NCBI GenBank assembly: GCA_016839745.1
Contig: JAEOTS010000041.1
Coordinates: forward strand, 1 to 30,280
Length of the DNA stretch: 30,280 nt
Direction of reading: 5' to 3'
DNA from: Promethearchaeota archaeon
Lineage (GTDB): Archaea > Asgardarchaeota > Lokiarchaeia > Sigyniarchaeales > SOKP01
A program made the position numbers and the translations under genes. Of the stretch, positions 302-6,776 are shown piece by piece. The number at the start of each line of letters is the position of its first letter. Position 1 is the first letter of the stretch. Under the pieces are notes generated by a model that worked only from the letters and a program-made list of their open reading frames with translations, made no database searches and was not told the origin of the DNA.

Positions 302-1183
302 TCAGACTAAATGATGAAAACCTTCTAAATGAACTATTGTGTCATATAGAAATTGAAAATTTTCCGGATTTCCAAATAACAAAAATATTTTATTCTGGAT
401 AGGAAGAACAACTTCTTTACCAACTAACCACTGTTTCTTCTTATATTTCACCTTAACAAATACATCTAATCCCGGATAATCATGAAACCTTGTATCTTTA
501 AGATTAACATCCTCAAATCCGGGGATTTTATCGTTGCGTATTTCATATTCTGTTTTAGATTTAAATACTCTAATTGCTTCATTTATTAAATTTTCATCAT
601 TTTCAATATTCCGGTTGAAATTAAAGATAATTAGACCACAATCTTTTGGAAATCCTTTATGGCCTTTTAATTCGTAATCAAGTGTTAATCTCCCAGCGGA
701 ATCTGAATATTCTATTACTTCAGATTTTATTTTCCAACCTTTTTCCACTAATGGTTTTAAATATTTTATTGCTCCGGGATGGATTGTATCAATTGTGAGC
801 TTTTTTGCTCCTTGGTACACTTGTTCAAGGTTATCTCCTATATAGAGGCTACATTCTTCTAATGATTTTAGTTCCTTTTCCTTTTCCTCAATCTTTTCAT
901 TAAATACTGAATAAGGTGATTTTGCAATATATTTAATCCTTTTAGGATTTTCAGAGATATCTTCAGCAATTACCCATCCTTTTGTGGATAACCTCTCCAT
1001 TATTGCATAAATTGTAGTCCTACCAAGCTCTAATTCGTTTTTAATGCGTCCTACAACCTCTCCTCTTGAACCTCGTTTTAATAGTGATAAATATACAATC
1101 GCTTCATCTTCTAATAATCCAAAAGCAAGAATATCGTCTTTGTATTTTTCAGCAATTTCTGATTTTATATTGTGTTCTTCCAT
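302..1183 (-). CDS. TrmB-family winged-HTH regulator with an uncharacterised C-terminal domain
   Basis: The N-terminal FGLLEDEAIVYLSLL...ELELGRTTIYAIMERLSTKGWV...YIAKSP matches the TrmB HTH pattern. The C-terminal domain is paralogous to that of 2019-3260. Confidence 0.8.
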   Translation of the reverse strand: MEEHNIKSEIAEKYKDDILAFGLLEDEAIVYLSLLKRGSRGEVVGRIKNELELGRTTIYAIMERLSTKGWVIAEDISENPKRIKYIAKSPYSVFNEKIEEKEKELKSLEECSLYIGDNLEQVYQGAKKLTIDTIHPGAIKYLKPLVEKGWKIKSEVIEYSDSAGRLTLDYELKGHKGFPKDCGLIIFNFNRNIENDENLINEAIRVFKSKTEYEIRNDKIPGFEDVNLKDTRFHDYPGLDVFVKVKYKKKQWLVGKEVVLPIQNKIFLLFGNPENFQFLYDTIVHLEGFHHLV

Positions 1184-1228: not shown

Positions 1229-1248
1229 TTGTCAATGCTGCTTGACAA
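1229..1248. promoter_or_regulatory. Perfect inverted repeat TTGTCAA-N6-TTGACAA, candidate operator
   Basis: Read directly in the 118-bp divergent intergenic region between the TrmB-like gene and the methyltransferase. Confidence 0.65.
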
Positions 1249-2018: not shown

Positions 2019-3260
2019 TCATTTTAAGTTCTTAATAATATTCATTAAATATGGGAATTTCTGTTCAGAACCCCATATTACATAAATTCTATTATCTATT
2101 GGAATCGCTACTAATTTCGCTACATTAACCCAATTGTTACTTAAATTTTTTGCTGTAATACTATTTTCTATAAATTTTATTTGAACTTCTGCAGCTAAAT
2201 AATCATCAATTTTTGATTCAACAATCTTAATATTTTCCAAATCCATTATGTTATGTTCTAATATTTGGTGTTTAATTTTCTCAGAGTAAAGGCGTAGTTT
2301 AACTCTATCCAGATTTTCCTCATCCTTAATCAACCTATCATATTCAAATACAACTATTCCACAATCCTTTTCGAATCCTATAATCTCTTGGATTTCAATG
2401 TCAAATGGTTCTTTTAAATCTCTAGTGTCTGAAGTGTCTATTTTCCACCCATTTTGAATATTTTCTCCTAAGACCAATTTGAAACCTTTTAAAATCTTTA
2501 TTTCTTCCTTTTTTTCCTTAATTAATCCTTCAATTAAGTCAAGAATGGGTTTAGCTACAAAAATTTTTGCAGCTTTAGGAAAAATTGCGATTTTTTCAAC
2601 CCAATCTCTCTCTACAAGGCGATCGATTATCCTATATATATGCGTTCTTTTTAAATCAAGTTCTTTATCTAAATTACCTATTTTTTCCCCATTCTCACCT
2701 TTTCTTAGTAGAGATAAATAAACCTTCGCCTCATCTTCACTGATACCCATTCTATTGATTCCTAATTTTTCAAAAACTCGAGATGTATCAGAAAGAATTT
2801 TAGGTGTTAAATCAAATTCTTTAACTTCTCCAAAAGATTTTTCTGGTTTAATATATGGATCATTCGAGCTCAGTTCTCTTAAGATATTAGCAGTTTTCGG
2901 GACTGCAAATAATAAAGACTGCCCTCCCGGGTTCTGGGGGATTTTACATAACACCGTCCTTTCACTATCTTTAAATCCAACAATACTCTCTTGACTTATA
3001 ACCTTTTTTTTAGTTTTATTAATGGAAACGGCAATGAGTCTCTCTAAAGTGTTCTGTAATATTGTGTATTTATTCCCTGTTAGATATAGGTATCTCTCTT
3101 CTTTTTTACCCCAAATAGAATTAATATGCTCAATATCTTCACTAATGTTCCAATTATCTGTTGAATAAATTACAATGTTTTTTCCATCAATAATTGCAGC
3201 CGCTATAATTTCAGGATCTTTTTGTATATCATAATCAATTTTAGCTAATATCTCTTCCAT
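2019..3260 (-). CDS. Fusion of Asgard profilin-like domain (aa ~1-135), TrmB wHTH (aa ~165-240) and an uncharacterised C-terminal domain
   Basis: The N-terminus DPEIIAAAIIDG..IYSTDNWNISEDI...W...LTGNKYTILQNTLERLIAVS...IVGFKD resembles Lokiarchaeal profilins (TxNWxISxD and GxKYxIxxxTxER motifs, from recall). The middle GISEDEAKVYLSLL...KRTHIYRIIDRLVERDWV is a TrmB HTH. A GAGGT SD-like element lies upstream. Confidence 0.75.
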   Translation of the reverse strand: MEEILAKIDYDIQKDPEIIAAAIIDGKNIVIYSTDNWNISEDIEHINSIWGKKEERYLYLTGNKYTILQNTLERLIAVSINKTKKKVISQESIVGFKDSERTVLCKIPQNPGGQSLLFAVPKTANILRELSSNDPYIKPEKSFGEVKEFDLTPKILSDTSRVFEKLGINRMGISEDEAKVYLSLLRKGENGEKIGNLDKELDLKRTHIYRIIDRLVERDWVEKIAIFPKAAKIFVAKPILDLIEGLIKEKKEEIKILKGFKLVLGENIQNGWKIDTSDTRDLKEPFDIEIQEIIGFEKDCGIVVFEYDRLIKDEENLDRVKLRLYSEKIKHQILEHNIMDLENIKIVESKIDDYLAAEVQIKFIENSITAKNLSNNWVNVAKLVAIPIDNRIYVIWGSEQKFPYLMNIIKNLK

Positions 3261-3286
3261 AGTTTTCTACCTCATACCTTATTATT

Positions 3287-3296
3287 AAAAAAAAAA
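3287..3296 (-). terminator. T10 tract downstream of actin, possible leaky archaeal terminator
   Basis: A10 on the + strand, 13 bp past the actin stop codon. Oligo-T tracts terminate archaeal transcription. Confidence 0.45.
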
Positions 3297-3309
3297 TATT
3301 GAAATTAAT

Positions 3310-4455
3310 TTAAAAACATCGATGTATTACTTCGGGACCCATTTCCTTATATTCTCTTCTCGTTATCCACATTCTCCTGAATGTTTTCAAAGAGCTTAAG
3401 ATTGAACCCCCAATCCAAACCGAATACATTCTCTCTGGGGGAGCTATTATCTTAACATCGATTGACTCTGGAATTAACTCTTTTATCTCTTTTGTTAATC
3501 GCTCTTTAACTCCCGGAAACATTGTTGAACCCCCTGAAAGAACTATATTGTTGTAAAGATCTCTCCGGAGGTCTACATCACAATCAGATACGGCTTCTAC
3601 GATTAAATCATCTAAAGGATTCAATTCTTTACCAATTACAGATGTATTAAAGAAGCATTCTGGAGCTAAAAATCTCTCTAAACCTATATTGATAACTTCA
3701 CCGTCAGGCATCATGTAATTTTTCTCCATTCCAGACACTCTCTTCGAAAGTATTACTTCCTTTTCAGGATCCATAGAAATATAACACAGTTTTTCCTTGA
3801 TATCTCTTACAATCTCCTTTTCTGCTGAAGTTGTGAAATTGTAACCTCTTTGCCTTAATAACCTTTGCAGGTAGGTTGTAATATCTCTACCTGCAAGGTC
3901 AACTCTTTGAATTGCATGACTGAGGGCGAATCCCTCGAAAATCGGTACTATATGCGAGACTCCATCTCCAATATCAATAACACATCCAGTTGTTCTACCA
4001 GAAGCATAAAGTGACAATACTGCCTGTGTAGCAATATAAAGAGCGGGTACATTAAATGTTTCAAACATTATCTCTGCTATTTTTTCTCTATTTAACCGAG
4101 GATTTAAGGGGGCTTCAGTTAAGAGAATTGGATGTTCTGACGGATCAATCCTAAGATCTGTAAAAAAAGTATAATGCCAAATCCGTTCCATTGAAGGCCA
4201 ATCGTCTACTACTCCGTGTTCAATTGGAAAATGAAGGTTCATAAGACCTTTAAGTTCTACGGCTTCCTCTCCAACATACCATTCCCGTGAATATTCTTTC
4301 ACATCAGGCATTATGTTTCCATATTTTGGCTTACCTACTACGGTTGGAAACACAGAACGAGGTTGATCTTCACCTGCATAACCATTCTTAGATATTCCAG
4401 TCCCATTATCTAATACTAACGGTCTTCCACCTATAAAATCACCATTGACTGACAT
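3310..4455 (-). CDS. Actin homolog (Lokiactin-type Asgard actin)
   Basis: Co-linear with eukaryotic actin: LVLDNGTG, FPIEHG, HPILLTEAPLNP, FETFNVPA, QAVLSLYASGRTTG, DIGDGVSH, DLAGRD, AEKEIVRDIKEKLCY, IVLSGGSTMFPG, IIAPPERxYSVWIGGSILSSL and C-terminal HRCF. No introns; prokaryotic neighbours. Confidence 0.97.
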   Translation of the reverse strand: MSVNGDFIGGRPLVLDNGTGISKNGYAGEDQPRSVFPTVVGKPKYGNIMPDVKEYSREWYVGEEAVELKGLMNLHFPIEHGVVDDWPSMERIWHYTFFTDLRIDPSEHPILLTEAPLNPRLNREKIAEIMFETFNVPALYIATQAVLSLYASGRTTGCVIDIGDGVSHIVPIFEGFALSHAIQRVDLAGRDITTYLQRLLRQRGYNFTTSAEKEIVRDIKEKLCYISMDPEKEVILSKRVSGMEKNYMMPDGEVINIGLERFLAPECFFNTSVIGKELNPLDDLIVEAVSDCDVDLRRDLYNNIVLSGGSTMFPGVKERLTKEIKELIPESIDVKIIAPPERMYSVWIGGSILSSLKTFRRMWITRREYKEMGPEVIHRCF

Positions 4456-4523: not shown

Positions 4524-4549
4524 TTTTCTACTTAGTAGTAAATAGAAAA
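4524..4549. promoter_or_regulatory. Imperfect palindrome upstream of actin
   Basis: TTTTCTACTTAGT|AGTAAATAGAAAA, with 11 of 13 positions complementary. AT-rich, so weak evidence. Confidence 0.3.
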
Positions 4550-4564
4550 ACGAATATTTAAATG

Positions 4565-4590
4565 TTGTCACGATCTTGTCACGATCTTGT
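4565..4590. repeat. 11-bp tandem repeat (TTGTCACGATC)x2 + TTGT in the actin / surface-protein divergent region
   Basis: Read directly: ttgtcacgatc ttgtcacgatc ttgt(gtcac). Confidence 0.85.
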
Positions 4591-4766
4591 GTCACTATTT
4601 TAATCATTAATTAATTTTTTTTTCTGAAAATTTTCCATCCTGTACAATCTGCTCTAAAAGTTTCGTTAGTTTAATTGTACTATAAAAAGATAAGCCAATA
4701 GTTATTTCATATTTTTTCCAAATATTTTTGATAACCTTTAAATAAACACCTAACAAATTATTATTT

Positions 4767-6776
4767 ATGGCAAAATCTAAATTAATAATAGGAATAATTT
4801 TACTCGTTGTTGGTGGTGGTTTAATACCAACAGGATTTGTTTTAAACCAAACTTTCGTCAACCAAATTGCTGAAGGAGTTCCTGATGCACTTTTAGCTAT
4901 TGAAGAGGAAGCCCTTCCATCTTTAGAAGAACAGTTACCCCCTTTAGGTACACCGGATGTTCTTTTGGGTATTGAAGCAGAAGCACTTATTACCTTAGAA
5001 ACACAACTACCCGTTCTCACAACACCTGCGGTCTTAGACGGTCTTAAGGATGAGGCAGTAGCAGCATTACCTGCGATAATCAACGGTTCAGGAGCCGTCC
5101 AAGCTATTAATAATAGCATATTTGCTGTATATGCATTAATCTTCTCTTTACCTGGTGCTTATGAACAGTGGTTCAACAATGCAAGCTTCAGTGGTTGGTA
5201 TCCTCCAACTGTACTACCTCAAGGACCTTCAGAATATACTGGTATGGGCAATCTTACTTTTACACCCATTGCCCAAGATAGAATATTAAATGGATATTCT
5301 ACTGCTCCGGGATTATTAGAAGATGAATTAGGTATTGGTTTATTAGGTTGGATGGAATTCTGGTCCTGGGCATTTGCTGATATAGGCGCTAATAGATCTA
5401 CAATGGAATTTATTTACAATGCTACTTGGGCTACGCAACTGGCTCCTCTAGGAGGTTATATAGTAAATTATCTATGGGATGTTGTGGTTAAATCAACATA
5501 TTCACCACCATATACCATAGAACAGTATGCTGAATTAGTATTTTACTCTCAATGGGCTAATGGCACGATTGTTGATGATGGAATTGATTTAAGTCTCTTC
5601 AAGGATACGCTACCAGCAGATACTAAAGGTCTTGAAGCAGGCGTTCCAAATCCCACTAACATTACAGTACCCACATGCATGGATCTCTGGGATGATTCAA
5701 ATTCAGACTCATTTGTAAACGATAGTGGGATTTTAGTATGGGTTGGTGCGATGCAAGGAAATGGAACCCTCCAAGGTTATTTAATCGGAGCATTTAGTCT
5801 GAATGGAGATCAATTAATCATACTACTAGGTTGGCTAGGGAATTTTATGACTAATCTCGTCCCACTTTTGCTTTTGGACGAAACCGGGTATACTATACCA
5901 GAACTAGCACAACTCGCATTCTATGAACAATGGGCTAATGGGACAATACAGGGGGCAGCAGTTTTACCTGGTGGATTTTTAAGTGAACTTAGTGCTTTAT
6001 TTGCGGGGGCACCATATTTCGAAGTTGGATTGCCAAGTCCTAGTGGACTTTCACTTATTGAAACTATGAATTTATGGGACGAAGCGAATGCTTACACTTT
6101 TGTTAATATGGATGGTATCTTAGTCTGGCTTGGAGCAATTACAAACGCAACTCTTCAAAGTGCATTAATATCAACATTCGGTATATCGGCAGGTGAATTA
6201 ACAGCGCTTCTAGCCTGGTTGGGTGGTTTTCTCACAGTACGAGTTCCACAACTTATTGAGTATGAAACAGGATTTACTATACCACAACTTGCTCAACTTT
6301 CATTTTATGAACAATGGGCTAACGGTACTATTCAGGGTCTAAGTATTTTACCTGACGGATTTTTAAGTGAACTTGATCCACCTATACTAGGACCTCCCTA
6401 CTTCGAAGTGGGCTTAACAGAAGGTTCAACAGGCTTAACAGTTTTTCAATGTGATGCACTCTGGGATGAGACAAGCGAATATTCACTCGTAAGTGCAAGT
6501 GGAATAAATAAGTGGTATAATGCAATTTTATCCAGTACTACATATGAAGATTTAAGAACTAATAATAGTGGTCTTTCTACTGCACAAATGACCCAAATTC
6601 TTGATTGGCTACTACAATTTAGGGATGAAATCGTAAATGCGTTAGCAAAGGAGCAATTGGGTTTACCAATGGAGCCATATGCTCTTGGAAATACGCTCCT
6701 TATTGGTCTAGCTGCGGGAGGAGGAGCATTAGCTGTTTTAGGCGTAGTACTATTAGCATTATCTAAGAGAATATAA
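4767..6776 (+). CDS. Membrane-anchored, internally repeated, acidic putative surface glycoprotein
   Basis: Hydrophobic N-terminal (LIIGIILLVVGGGLI) and C-terminal (LLIGLAAGGGALAVLGVVLLAL-SKRI) segments. Three ~127-aa repeats (FYxQWANGTI...EVG...LWD...G...W), 24-aa N-terminal repeats and many N-x-S/T sequons. Confidence 0.8.
   Translation: MAKSKLIIGIILLVVGGGLIPTGFVLNQTFVNQIAEGVPDALLAIEEEALPSLEEQLPPLGTPDVLLGIEAEALITLETQLPVLTTPAVLDGLKDEAVAALPAIINGSGAVQAINNSIFAVYALIFSLPGAYEQWFNNASFSGWYPPTVLPQGPSEYTGMGNLTFTPIAQDRILNGYSTAPGLLEDELGIGLLGWMEFWSWAFADIGANRSTMEFIYNATWATQLAPLGGYIVNYLWDVVVKSTYSPPYTIEQYAELVFYSQWANGTIVDDGIDLSLFKDTLPADTKGLEAGVPNPTNITVPTCMDLWDDSNSDSFVNDSGILVWVGAMQGNGTLQGYLIGAFSLNGDQLIILLGWLGNFMTNLVPLLLLDETGYTIPELAQLAFYEQWANGTIQGAAVLPGGFLSELSALFAGAPYFEVGLPSPSGLSLIETMNLWDEANAYTFVNMDGILVWLGAITNATLQSALISTFGISAGELTALLAWLGGFLTVRVPQLIEYETGFTIPQLAQLSFYEQWANGTIQGLSILPDGFLSELDPPILGPPYFEVGLTEGSTGLTVFQCDALWDETSEYSLVSASGINKWYNAILSSTTYEDLRTNNSGLSTAQMTQILDWLLQFRDEIVNALAKEQLGLPMEPYALGNTLLIGLAAGGGALAVLGVVLLALSKRI

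Follow-up and report, generated by a model that had tools for sequence, protein, structure and literature searches.

The window analysed here, a 30,280-nt stretch of contig JAEOTS010000041.1 from a Promethearchaeota archaeon of the Lokiarchaeia (assembly GCA_016839745.1), carries an actin gene, actin-2, and directly behind it on the same strand a 413-aa open reading frame (ORF) in which a profilin domain precedes a TrmB-type winged helix-turn-helix (wHTH). We refer to the product of this ORF as the fusion and to the two genes with their promoter as the cassette; the features of the locus are collected in Table 1. An earlier note on this DNA, made from the sequence without database searches, had described the ORF as lying 49 bp downstream of the actin gene, with profilin motifs followed by a TrmB wHTH, and had proposed that profilin serves as the sensor of a regulator coupling monomeric actin to transcription. 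Its coordinates agree with ours and the profilin motifs that it quoted were found in the N-terminus of the fusion; in a Pfam scan of the whole protein, the TrmB winged helix was the sole match. The fusion also holds two features beyond the note, a long helix and a conserved alpha/beta domain, both following the winged helix.

Table 1. Features of the actin-2/fusion locus, with positions in the window
Feature	Position	Strand	Evidence
TrmB2, profilin-less paralog, 293 aa: winged helix, helix, same C-terminal domain as the fusion	302..1183	-	Pfam and alignment
Palindrome TTGTCAA-N6-TTGACAA beside TTTAAATA box, between TrmB2 and methyltransferase gene	1229..1248	+	sequence read
Fusion ORF, 413 aa, profilin and TrmB wHTH	2019..3260	-	ORF translation
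C-terminal alpha/beta domain of fusion, aa 289-413 (125 aa)	2022..2396	-	pLDDT 80-90 in second AlphaFold2 model (aa 172-413)
Long amphipathic helix, aa 239-264, in the place of the TrmB coiled-coil dimerisation helix	2469..2546	-	AlphaFold2 models
TrmB-type wHTH, aa 165-238	2547..2768	-	Pfam PF01978, 39 bits at aa 170-228 (cut-off 25.6)
Linker, aa 135-164, predicted disordered, starting with K-x-P-Y	2769..2858	-	pLDDT below 50
Profilin domain, aa 1-134	2859..3260	-	phmmer, AlphaFold2, Foldseek, VIA
Actin-to-fusion spacer (49 nt): T10 run, then Shine-Dalgarno-like GAGGT 9 nt before ATG	3261..3309	-	sequence read
Actin-2 (spare actin), 381 aa, intact	3310..4455	-	Pfam Actin, E 5e-130
Second small palindrome CTACTAAGTAG, just 3' of TATA box near expected transcription start	4528..4538	-	sequence read
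Putative operator and TATA box: three direct GTGACA half-sites	4555..4595	-	sequence read

We found that the N-terminal domain of the fusion has a genuine profilin fold. Specifically, phmmer searches of PDB sequences with the first 140 aa retrieved LokiProfilin2 (5zzb), LokiProfilin1 (5yed) and the Odin profilin (5zza) with E values of 1e-6, 2e-6 and 6e-3, respectively. An AlphaFold2 model of the fusion, based on a 41-sequence alignment, had predicted local distance difference test (pLDDT) values of 80-90 over aa 20-110 and profilin topology for aa 1-130, the modelled order of helices and strands (H-E-E-H-E-E-E-E-E-H) being that of the profilin fold. Among the Foldseek matches, Asgard profilins ranked first and eukaryotic profilins second, with target-normalised template modelling (TM) scores of 0.70-0.74, and the exhaustive structural comparison VIA gave Z scores of 17.6 for LokiProfilin1 (root-mean-square deviation 2.2 A over 123 aa), 16.5 for the Odin profilin, 15.2 for yeast profilin and about 10 for Roadblock/MglB. 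Because the sequence matches, the model and the Foldseek and VIA scores agree, the earlier note was correct in reading aa 1-135 as profilin. The Pfam Profilin model (PF00235), which it had named as a check, gave no match to aa 1-140 even at an E value of 10, so we regard the fusion profilin as belonging to a divergent subfamily; related subfamily members scored against PF00235 with E values of 2.5e-4 to 8.5e-3, under the cut-off. Identity to the solved Asgard profilins is 24-27%. Within the domain, W37, Y65 and G95 are invariant across the fusion family, and the segment most conserved with LokiProfilin1 and LokiProfilin2 in the phmmer alignment is the beta4-beta5 hairpin (G-x-K-Y-x-I-x-x-N-T-x-E-R), which we take from known profilin-actin structures to be the core of the actin-binding face of profilin.

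In the linker that follows, K133, P135 and Y136 are nearly invariant. The TrmB assignment was confirmed by Pfam (Table 1) and by structural matches of the winged helix with VIA Z scores of 10-12. Its recognition helix, KRTHIYRII, contains Y209, which is invariant in the 41 sequences and equivalent to Y50 of TrmB, whose recognition helix contacts DNA via Y50/D51 (PMC4158304). In the family alignment, profilin on the one hand and the wHTH, helix and C-terminal domain on the other are conserved to an equal degree. The C-terminal domain had no match in Pfam, in PDB profile and sequence searches or in the ESM Atlas, and Foldseek returned only weak DcrB/PsbP/Mog1-like matches (E about 1e-3). The effector-binding domain (EBD) of TrmB, PF11495, was found by none of Pfam, PDB profile search, Foldseek and VIA, the VIA lists being mostly filled by the winged helix, so that they barely probed the C-terminal domain and gave no convincing assignment for it. 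The window also encodes a paralog without profilin, TrmB2, 836 bp downstream of the fusion stop codon and 30% identical to the fusion across the winged helix and C-terminal domain. Since the long helix and the C-terminal domain are common to this paralog, profilin is better described as an added input and not necessarily as the sensor. The two proteins also differ in the recognition helix (GRTTIYAIM in TrmB2), which reads KRT[HT]IYRI in all fusions versus [GA]RTT[IL]Y[AG]I in the paralogs, the residue after the DNA-contacting Tyr being R in the fusions and A or G in the TrmB2 paralogs.

The neighbouring gene, called Lokiactin-type in the earlier note, does encode such an actin but not the main Lokiactin, which lies on another contig of the same genome (G000:C80:8980-10110) and is 82% identical to actin-2. 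Actin-2 is a spare, faster-evolving paralog and not the main cytoskeletal actin. The primary actin is present in 116 of the 135 species genomes of the GTDB family concerned and is nearly invariant among them (mean pairwise identity 98.6%); the actin-2 group is variable (mean identity 82.6%, minimum 68%) and was found only in genomes that also hold the fusion, giving two close actins in genomes with the fusion and one in those without it. The primary actins cluster tightly in an unrooted tree (support 99), and every spare actin falls outside this cluster. Rooting with the distant actin paralogs of the genome failed, with branches of 7-10 substitutions per site, and our claim from the tree is limited to this unrooted split. 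The positions diagnostic of primary versus spare actin cluster at aa 39-87 (D-loop, subdomain 2), and the stretches of the barbed end presumed to contact profilin, with contact residues that we take from eukaryotic profilin-actin structures, are identical in the two proteins. The near-invariance of the primary actin fits the published finding that Lokiactin is among the most conserved Asgard proteins; L. ossiferum is reported to have one Lokiactin, three genes similar to those of actin-related proteins and three profilin-like proteins (PMC9834061). In most genomes of the family, the primary Lokiactin is followed by an unrelated, conserved 324-aa protein without a Pfam match (G000:C80:8980-11288; L045-L049), present in 104 of the 135 genomes and representing a second conserved actin-linked gene.

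The fusion family comprises 66 relatives at the 90% cluster level, all of them full-length (about 410-430 aa) and annotated at most as helix-turn-helix proteins. Taking one representative genome per species, we obtained 44 loci, 43 of them with the whole fusion gene. Of these 43, 42 have an actin gene immediately upstream in the same orientation; the one exception is a locus whose sequence stops 762 bp upstream of the fusion gene. The adjacency to actin that the earlier note had expected in relatives was thus recovered. The distribution is patchy: within a single GTDB family, 45 of the 135 species genomes, belonging to 4 of its 13 genera, have the full-length fusion, and it was not found in other families among 400 Asgard genomes. 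Five genomes of the same genus that are 100% complete have the primary actin only and lack the cassette. An HD-domain gene, UvrA-like genes and orf344 form the conserved flanks. In one of the five complete genomes without the cassette, G236, a perfect TTGTCAC-N6-GTGACAA palindrome (G236:C4:5624-5641; L059:2026-2042) remains directly behind the HD-domain gene's stop codon, with the UvrA-like genes beyond it and no TATA box; this palindrome is probably a relic of cassette loss. The patchy presence in the family, the absence from complete genomes and the relic site in G236 indicate that the cassette is accessory and has been repeatedly lost. Our data did not support a mobile element, as the flanks recur across loci and the cassette-free relative keeps the palindrome at the same place.

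In all 21 loci with short actin-to-fusion spacers (36-92 nt), a run of about 5-13 T is followed by a purine-rich stretch, usually of the GAGGTG/GGAGGT type, ahead of the fusion start codon. To judge from its sequence, this arrangement suggests that the two genes are co-transcribed as a leadered message, part of which terminates at the oligo-T run. The other 22 loci have spacers of 225-602 nt, and in about 15-18 of the 43 loci these long spacers contain a conserved ORF of 60-77 aa (L023:5738-5941; also L004, L015, L019, L025-L027, L031, L032, L036, L038-L040 and L043). Its product is marked by an N-terminal I-D-G-I-P-C-I motif and a C-terminal amphipathic V-L-D-E-I-K-K-K-F motif; it had no Pfam match, and no copy was found in the window or elsewhere in its genome. 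This small protein is a possible third component of the cassette.

Upstream of actin-2, the three GTGACA half-sites of the putative operator (4590-4595, 4577-4582 and 4566-4571) are spaced 13 and 11 bp apart, and the last ends 3 nt from TTTAAATA (4555-4562). The patterns GTGACA-N4-8-GTGACA and GTGACA-N1-5-TTTAWATA each occur only at the actin-2 promoter in the 3.5-Mb genome, and a global regulon in this genome was therefore rejected; a looser pattern of half-site plus TATA box gave a background of about 0.5 per genome, equal to that of the reversed control. A full palindrome, GTCAC-N6-9-GTGAC, lies upstream of actin-2 in 28 of 40 loci, and in 35 of the 40 the right half-site is 1-5 nt from a TTTAWATA box, overlapping the position of the transcription factor B recognition element (BRE). 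Neither the palindrome nor the TATA-abutting half-site was present in any of 24 primary-actin loci, and each of five other genomes with the fusion has essentially a single copy of the palindrome, located at its actin-2 promoter. Sites of the TrmB family, for example TATCAC-N5-GTGATA of TrmBL1/Tgr, lie at the BRE/TATA or the transcription start, upstream sites activating and downstream sites repressing (PMC4158304). The actin-2 motif resembles the TrmBL1 site and matches the position of TrmB-family operators, and such a conserved TrmB-type palindrome on an actin promoter is in keeping with the regulator of the neighbouring actin gene that had been proposed. We rejected a reading of the palindrome as an RNA hairpin or terminator because the half-sites are conserved but separated by a variable spacer, and because their position is 5' of the TATA box. 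The second palindrome of the promoter, CTACTAAGTAG, recurs in the closest loci, L001 and L006, and is not conserved family-wide. In another genome, G274, about 29 copies of GTGACAAGATTTAAATA proved to be unrelated to the actin-2 promoter and to belong to a multicopy repeat at contig ends (e.g. L082-L084), in which the sequence lies beside a GC-rich hairpin; this repeat probably represents an insertion-element terminus. In 14 loci (L011, L016-L018, L020-L022, L025, L028, L029, L034, L036, L037 and L042), the TATA box is about 190-220 nt before the actin-2 start; the long leaders hold blocks conserved between distant loci and may be regulatory 5' untranslated regions.

A comparable palindrome lies beside TrmB2 (Table 1). 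It is one of three TTGTC-N10-GACAA sites in the genome, and related palindromes of this form are present in the same intergenic region of L004, L021, L023 and L030. Because the paralog has both its own palindrome and a changed recognition-helix residue, each palindrome may be assigned to its neighbouring regulator.

A profile of the profilin subfamily of the fusion identified 156 proteins among 1.84 billion representatives. Stand-alone forms have 115-260 aa, and other members combine profilin with different partners: some are fused to an LCM methyltransferase (PF04072, E 2e-33; L079:553-1860 and L080:647-1912, both on the minus strand), and others have the architectures profilin plus SIR2, Ras-like GTPase plus profilin, profilin plus leucine-rich repeats (LRR), or profilin behind multiple winged helices or a long coiled coil (architectures of this variety are found in P0089, P0090, P0091, P0101, P0137, P0157, P0177, P0172 and P0196). 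The linker motif of the fusion is common to the profilin-LCM proteins and the long stand-alone profilins. Profilin thus appears to be a modular domain in Lokiarchaeia, and its fusion to several effector types suits a portable binding module. The genome studied here has three further profilin-like genes (G000:C94:20920-21537, equivalent to L051:1456-2073; G000:C83:11064-11285; and G000:C58:27201-27578), the closest of whose products, with 205 aa, is 40% identical to the fusion domain and has a K-x-x-Y linker motif and a helical tail.

We consider the fusion to be a dedicated TrmB-type autoregulator of the actin-2 operon with an added profilin domain that probably provides an input from monomeric actin, a reading to which we give a probability of about one half. 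A TrmB-type protein would have gained the N-terminal profilin and, together with actin-2 and its own operator, would have become a self-contained cassette. The fusion would dimerise via the helix after the winged helix and bind the GTCAC/GTGAC half-sites, which lie at the operon's core promoter, thereby controlling actin-2 and, through read-through of the oligo-T run, its own expression too. The profilin domain would bind monomeric actin at the barbed-end face, the partner being actin-2, the primary Lokiactin or both, and its occupancy might alter DNA binding in such a way that actin-2 output tracks the state of the actin pool. The position of the site over the BRE favours repression, yet TrmBL1 activates from sites upstream of the BRE/TATA. 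The parts of this model differ in strength. That the fusion protein binds DNA is strongly predicted and that its profilin domain binds actin is a reasonable prediction, favoured indirectly by the conserved beta4-beta5 hairpin and the strict linkage to an actin gene, and actin-dependent switching of DNA binding is speculative. A true prokaryotic actin-sensing circuit, in which G-actin on the DNA-bound regulator switches the actin-2 operon, is doubtful in our view. Several observations weigh against the model. We infer binding of the actin-2 motif by the fusion from their linkage only; the site in the window consists of three direct repeats and not a palindrome, which fits a symmetric dimer less simply; the C-terminal domain could be the real sensor; the profilin fold, here missed by Pfam, closely resembles folds of the Roadblock/longin type, whose binding partners differ; and the cassette is dispensable, being missing from two thirds of the family, complete genomes included.

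The fusion may instead be a local regulator of actin-2 whose profilin-like domain no longer binds actin. The domain would then serve as an oligomerisation surface or accommodate a different ligand or partner (a lipid, the small spacer-encoded protein or a polyproline peptide, for example), actin being only the target. The low identity to solved profilins and the missing Pfam match would fit this alternative, as would the Roadblock-type folds found at Z about 10 on the same domain, the fusion of this domain to many unrelated effectors and the spacer ORF conserved in part of the loci. The VIA scores, however, place profilins far above Roadblock, and the segment most conserved with the actin-binding Loki profilins is the actin-facing hairpin. 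In addition, absolute linkage to actin would be hard to explain if actin were only the target, because the profilin-less paralog would regulate the methyltransferase gene without such a domain. We regard a loss of actin binding as rather unlikely. Less probable is that the protein acts mainly as a dedicated profilin for actin-2, in sequestration, nucleotide exchange or delivery, with the wHTH providing simple autoregulation or a nucleoid tether, much as in bifunctional enzyme-repressors such as BirA and PutA. The genuine profilin fold, the tie of the cassette to its own actin and the three stand-alone profilin-like genes presumably available to the primary actin are all compatible with this role. 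But production by read-through of the oligo-T tract would probably keep the level of the fusion far below that of actin, as expected of a sensor more than of a factor that sequesters actin stoichiometrically, and the conservation of the DNA-binding, helical and C-terminal parts to the same degree as profilin also speaks against it.

An adaptor similar to ParR, which would use its profilin domain at the barbed end to couple a centromere-like site to growing actin-2 filaments, for the positioning or segregation of DNA, and would repress the operon as a side effect, is suggested by the order of site, actin and DNA-binding protein as in type II partition loci, by the use by profilin of the same barbed-end cleft that ParR peptides occupy on ParM, by the accessory and fast-evolving nature of the cassette and by the three direct repeats in the window, whose spacing is about one helical turn. 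In most loci, however, there is a single palindrome and no iteron array, and, like TrmB operators, the site overlaps with the core promoter. The context, with HD-domain and UvrA-like genes, is chromosomal, with no recognisable plasmid or mobile element, and one would not expect two thirds of the close relatives to have lost a segregation function, so we consider such an adaptor very unlikely. Slightly lower still do we place the chance that another factor binds the palindrome, the fusion regulating unrelated genes or none and its position reflecting co-expression only. That the regulator was matched to its site by linkage, and that G236 keeps the palindrome without the cassette, would agree with such a factor; but the motif is of the TrmB type, is unique in each genome and co-occurs with the fusion, TrmB2 likewise lies beside a palindrome, and the G236 site, sitting exactly at the cassette position next to the HD-domain gene and lacking a TATA box, looks like a relic of loss.

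The fusion shares features with several known systems. Stand-alone Asgard profilins (5YED/5YEE, 5ZZB, 5ZZA, Thor 7PBH and Heimdall 6YRR) have the same fold, with detectable homology (E 1e-6), and share with the fusion domain the W-N/D motif and the motif of the beta4-beta5 hairpin. They are single-domain proteins of 119-148 aa that bind actin and inhibit its polymerisation (PMC8410842), whereas the fusion domain heads a 413-aa DNA-binding protein, its actin binding is predicted, and its subfamily is marked by a G-[FA]-K-D-x-E-R hairpin and the K-x-P-Y linker. Members of the TrmB family (TrmB of P. furiosus, TrmBL1/Tgr and TrmBL2) resemble the fusion in having a winged helix that carries the conserved Tyr and, after it, a long helix, predicted in the fusion, and a further domain in the place of an effector domain; the Thermococcales glycolytic motif (TGM)-type palindrome of TrmBL1 has its counterpart in GTCAC-N6-GTGAC at the actin-2 loci, also at the BRE/TATA, and autoregulation is known in the family (PMC4158304). 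Unlike TrmB, the fusion has no detectable sugar-binding EBD (no PF11495 match in Pfam) and has an extra profilin domain before the wHTH, and its predicted target is a cytoskeletal gene and not sugar metabolism. With MRTF-A/SRF of animals, in which a regulator with an actin-monomer-binding module places cytoskeletal genes under the control of G-actin, the likeness would be a functional analogy only, should the proposed mechanism hold. As the earlier note had stated, the two are not homologous: no RPEL family was among the Pfam matches at E values up to 1, and the fusion would use profilin as the binder and contact DNA directly, in a cell with no nucleus. The cassette also recalls ParM/ParR/parC in its order of cis site, actin-family gene and DNA-binding protein and, if the barbed-end contact is real, in a DNA-binding protein that touches the barbed-end region of actin and autoregulates its operon; it differs in having a winged helix and not a ribbon-helix-helix, usually one palindrome (here three direct repeats) and not iteron arrays, a chromosomal context, and a eukaryote-like actin instead of ParM.

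To our knowledge, Asgard profilins have been known only as small stand-alone actin regulators. Archaeal one-component regulators are known to sense small molecules, and feedback from the cytoskeleton to transcription is otherwise known from animal MRTF-SRF. In the full-text literature searched, we found neither the fusion nor a second Lokiactin described, in line with the earlier note, which was aware of no description of the architecture. If the proposed circuit is true, it would provide the first example in a prokaryote of feedback from the cytoskeleton to transcription. Cytoskeletal state would then act directly as a signal for transcription in the archaea most closely related to eukaryotes, and the proteins in which profilin is fused to GTPase, deacetylase, methyltransferase or LRR domains would mark a wider actin-linked signalling network. 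The importance of the finding is limited because the cassette is accessory and confined to a single family that apparently lacks cultured members, and because the regulatory claims are predicted from sequence and models only. Some Lokiarchaeia have two Lokiactin-type isoforms, apparently under different control.

Two further gene arrangements border the cassette. TrmB2 and a divergent class I S-adenosylmethionine methyltransferase gene (302-2015) share the palindrome-bearing intergenic region, and this pair is also adjacent to the cassette in L004, L021, L023 and L030. On the other side, divergent from the actin-2 promoter region, the window encodes a 669-aa repeat protein with terminal hydrophobic helices (4767-6776), which adjoins the cassette elsewhere only in L011 and L014.

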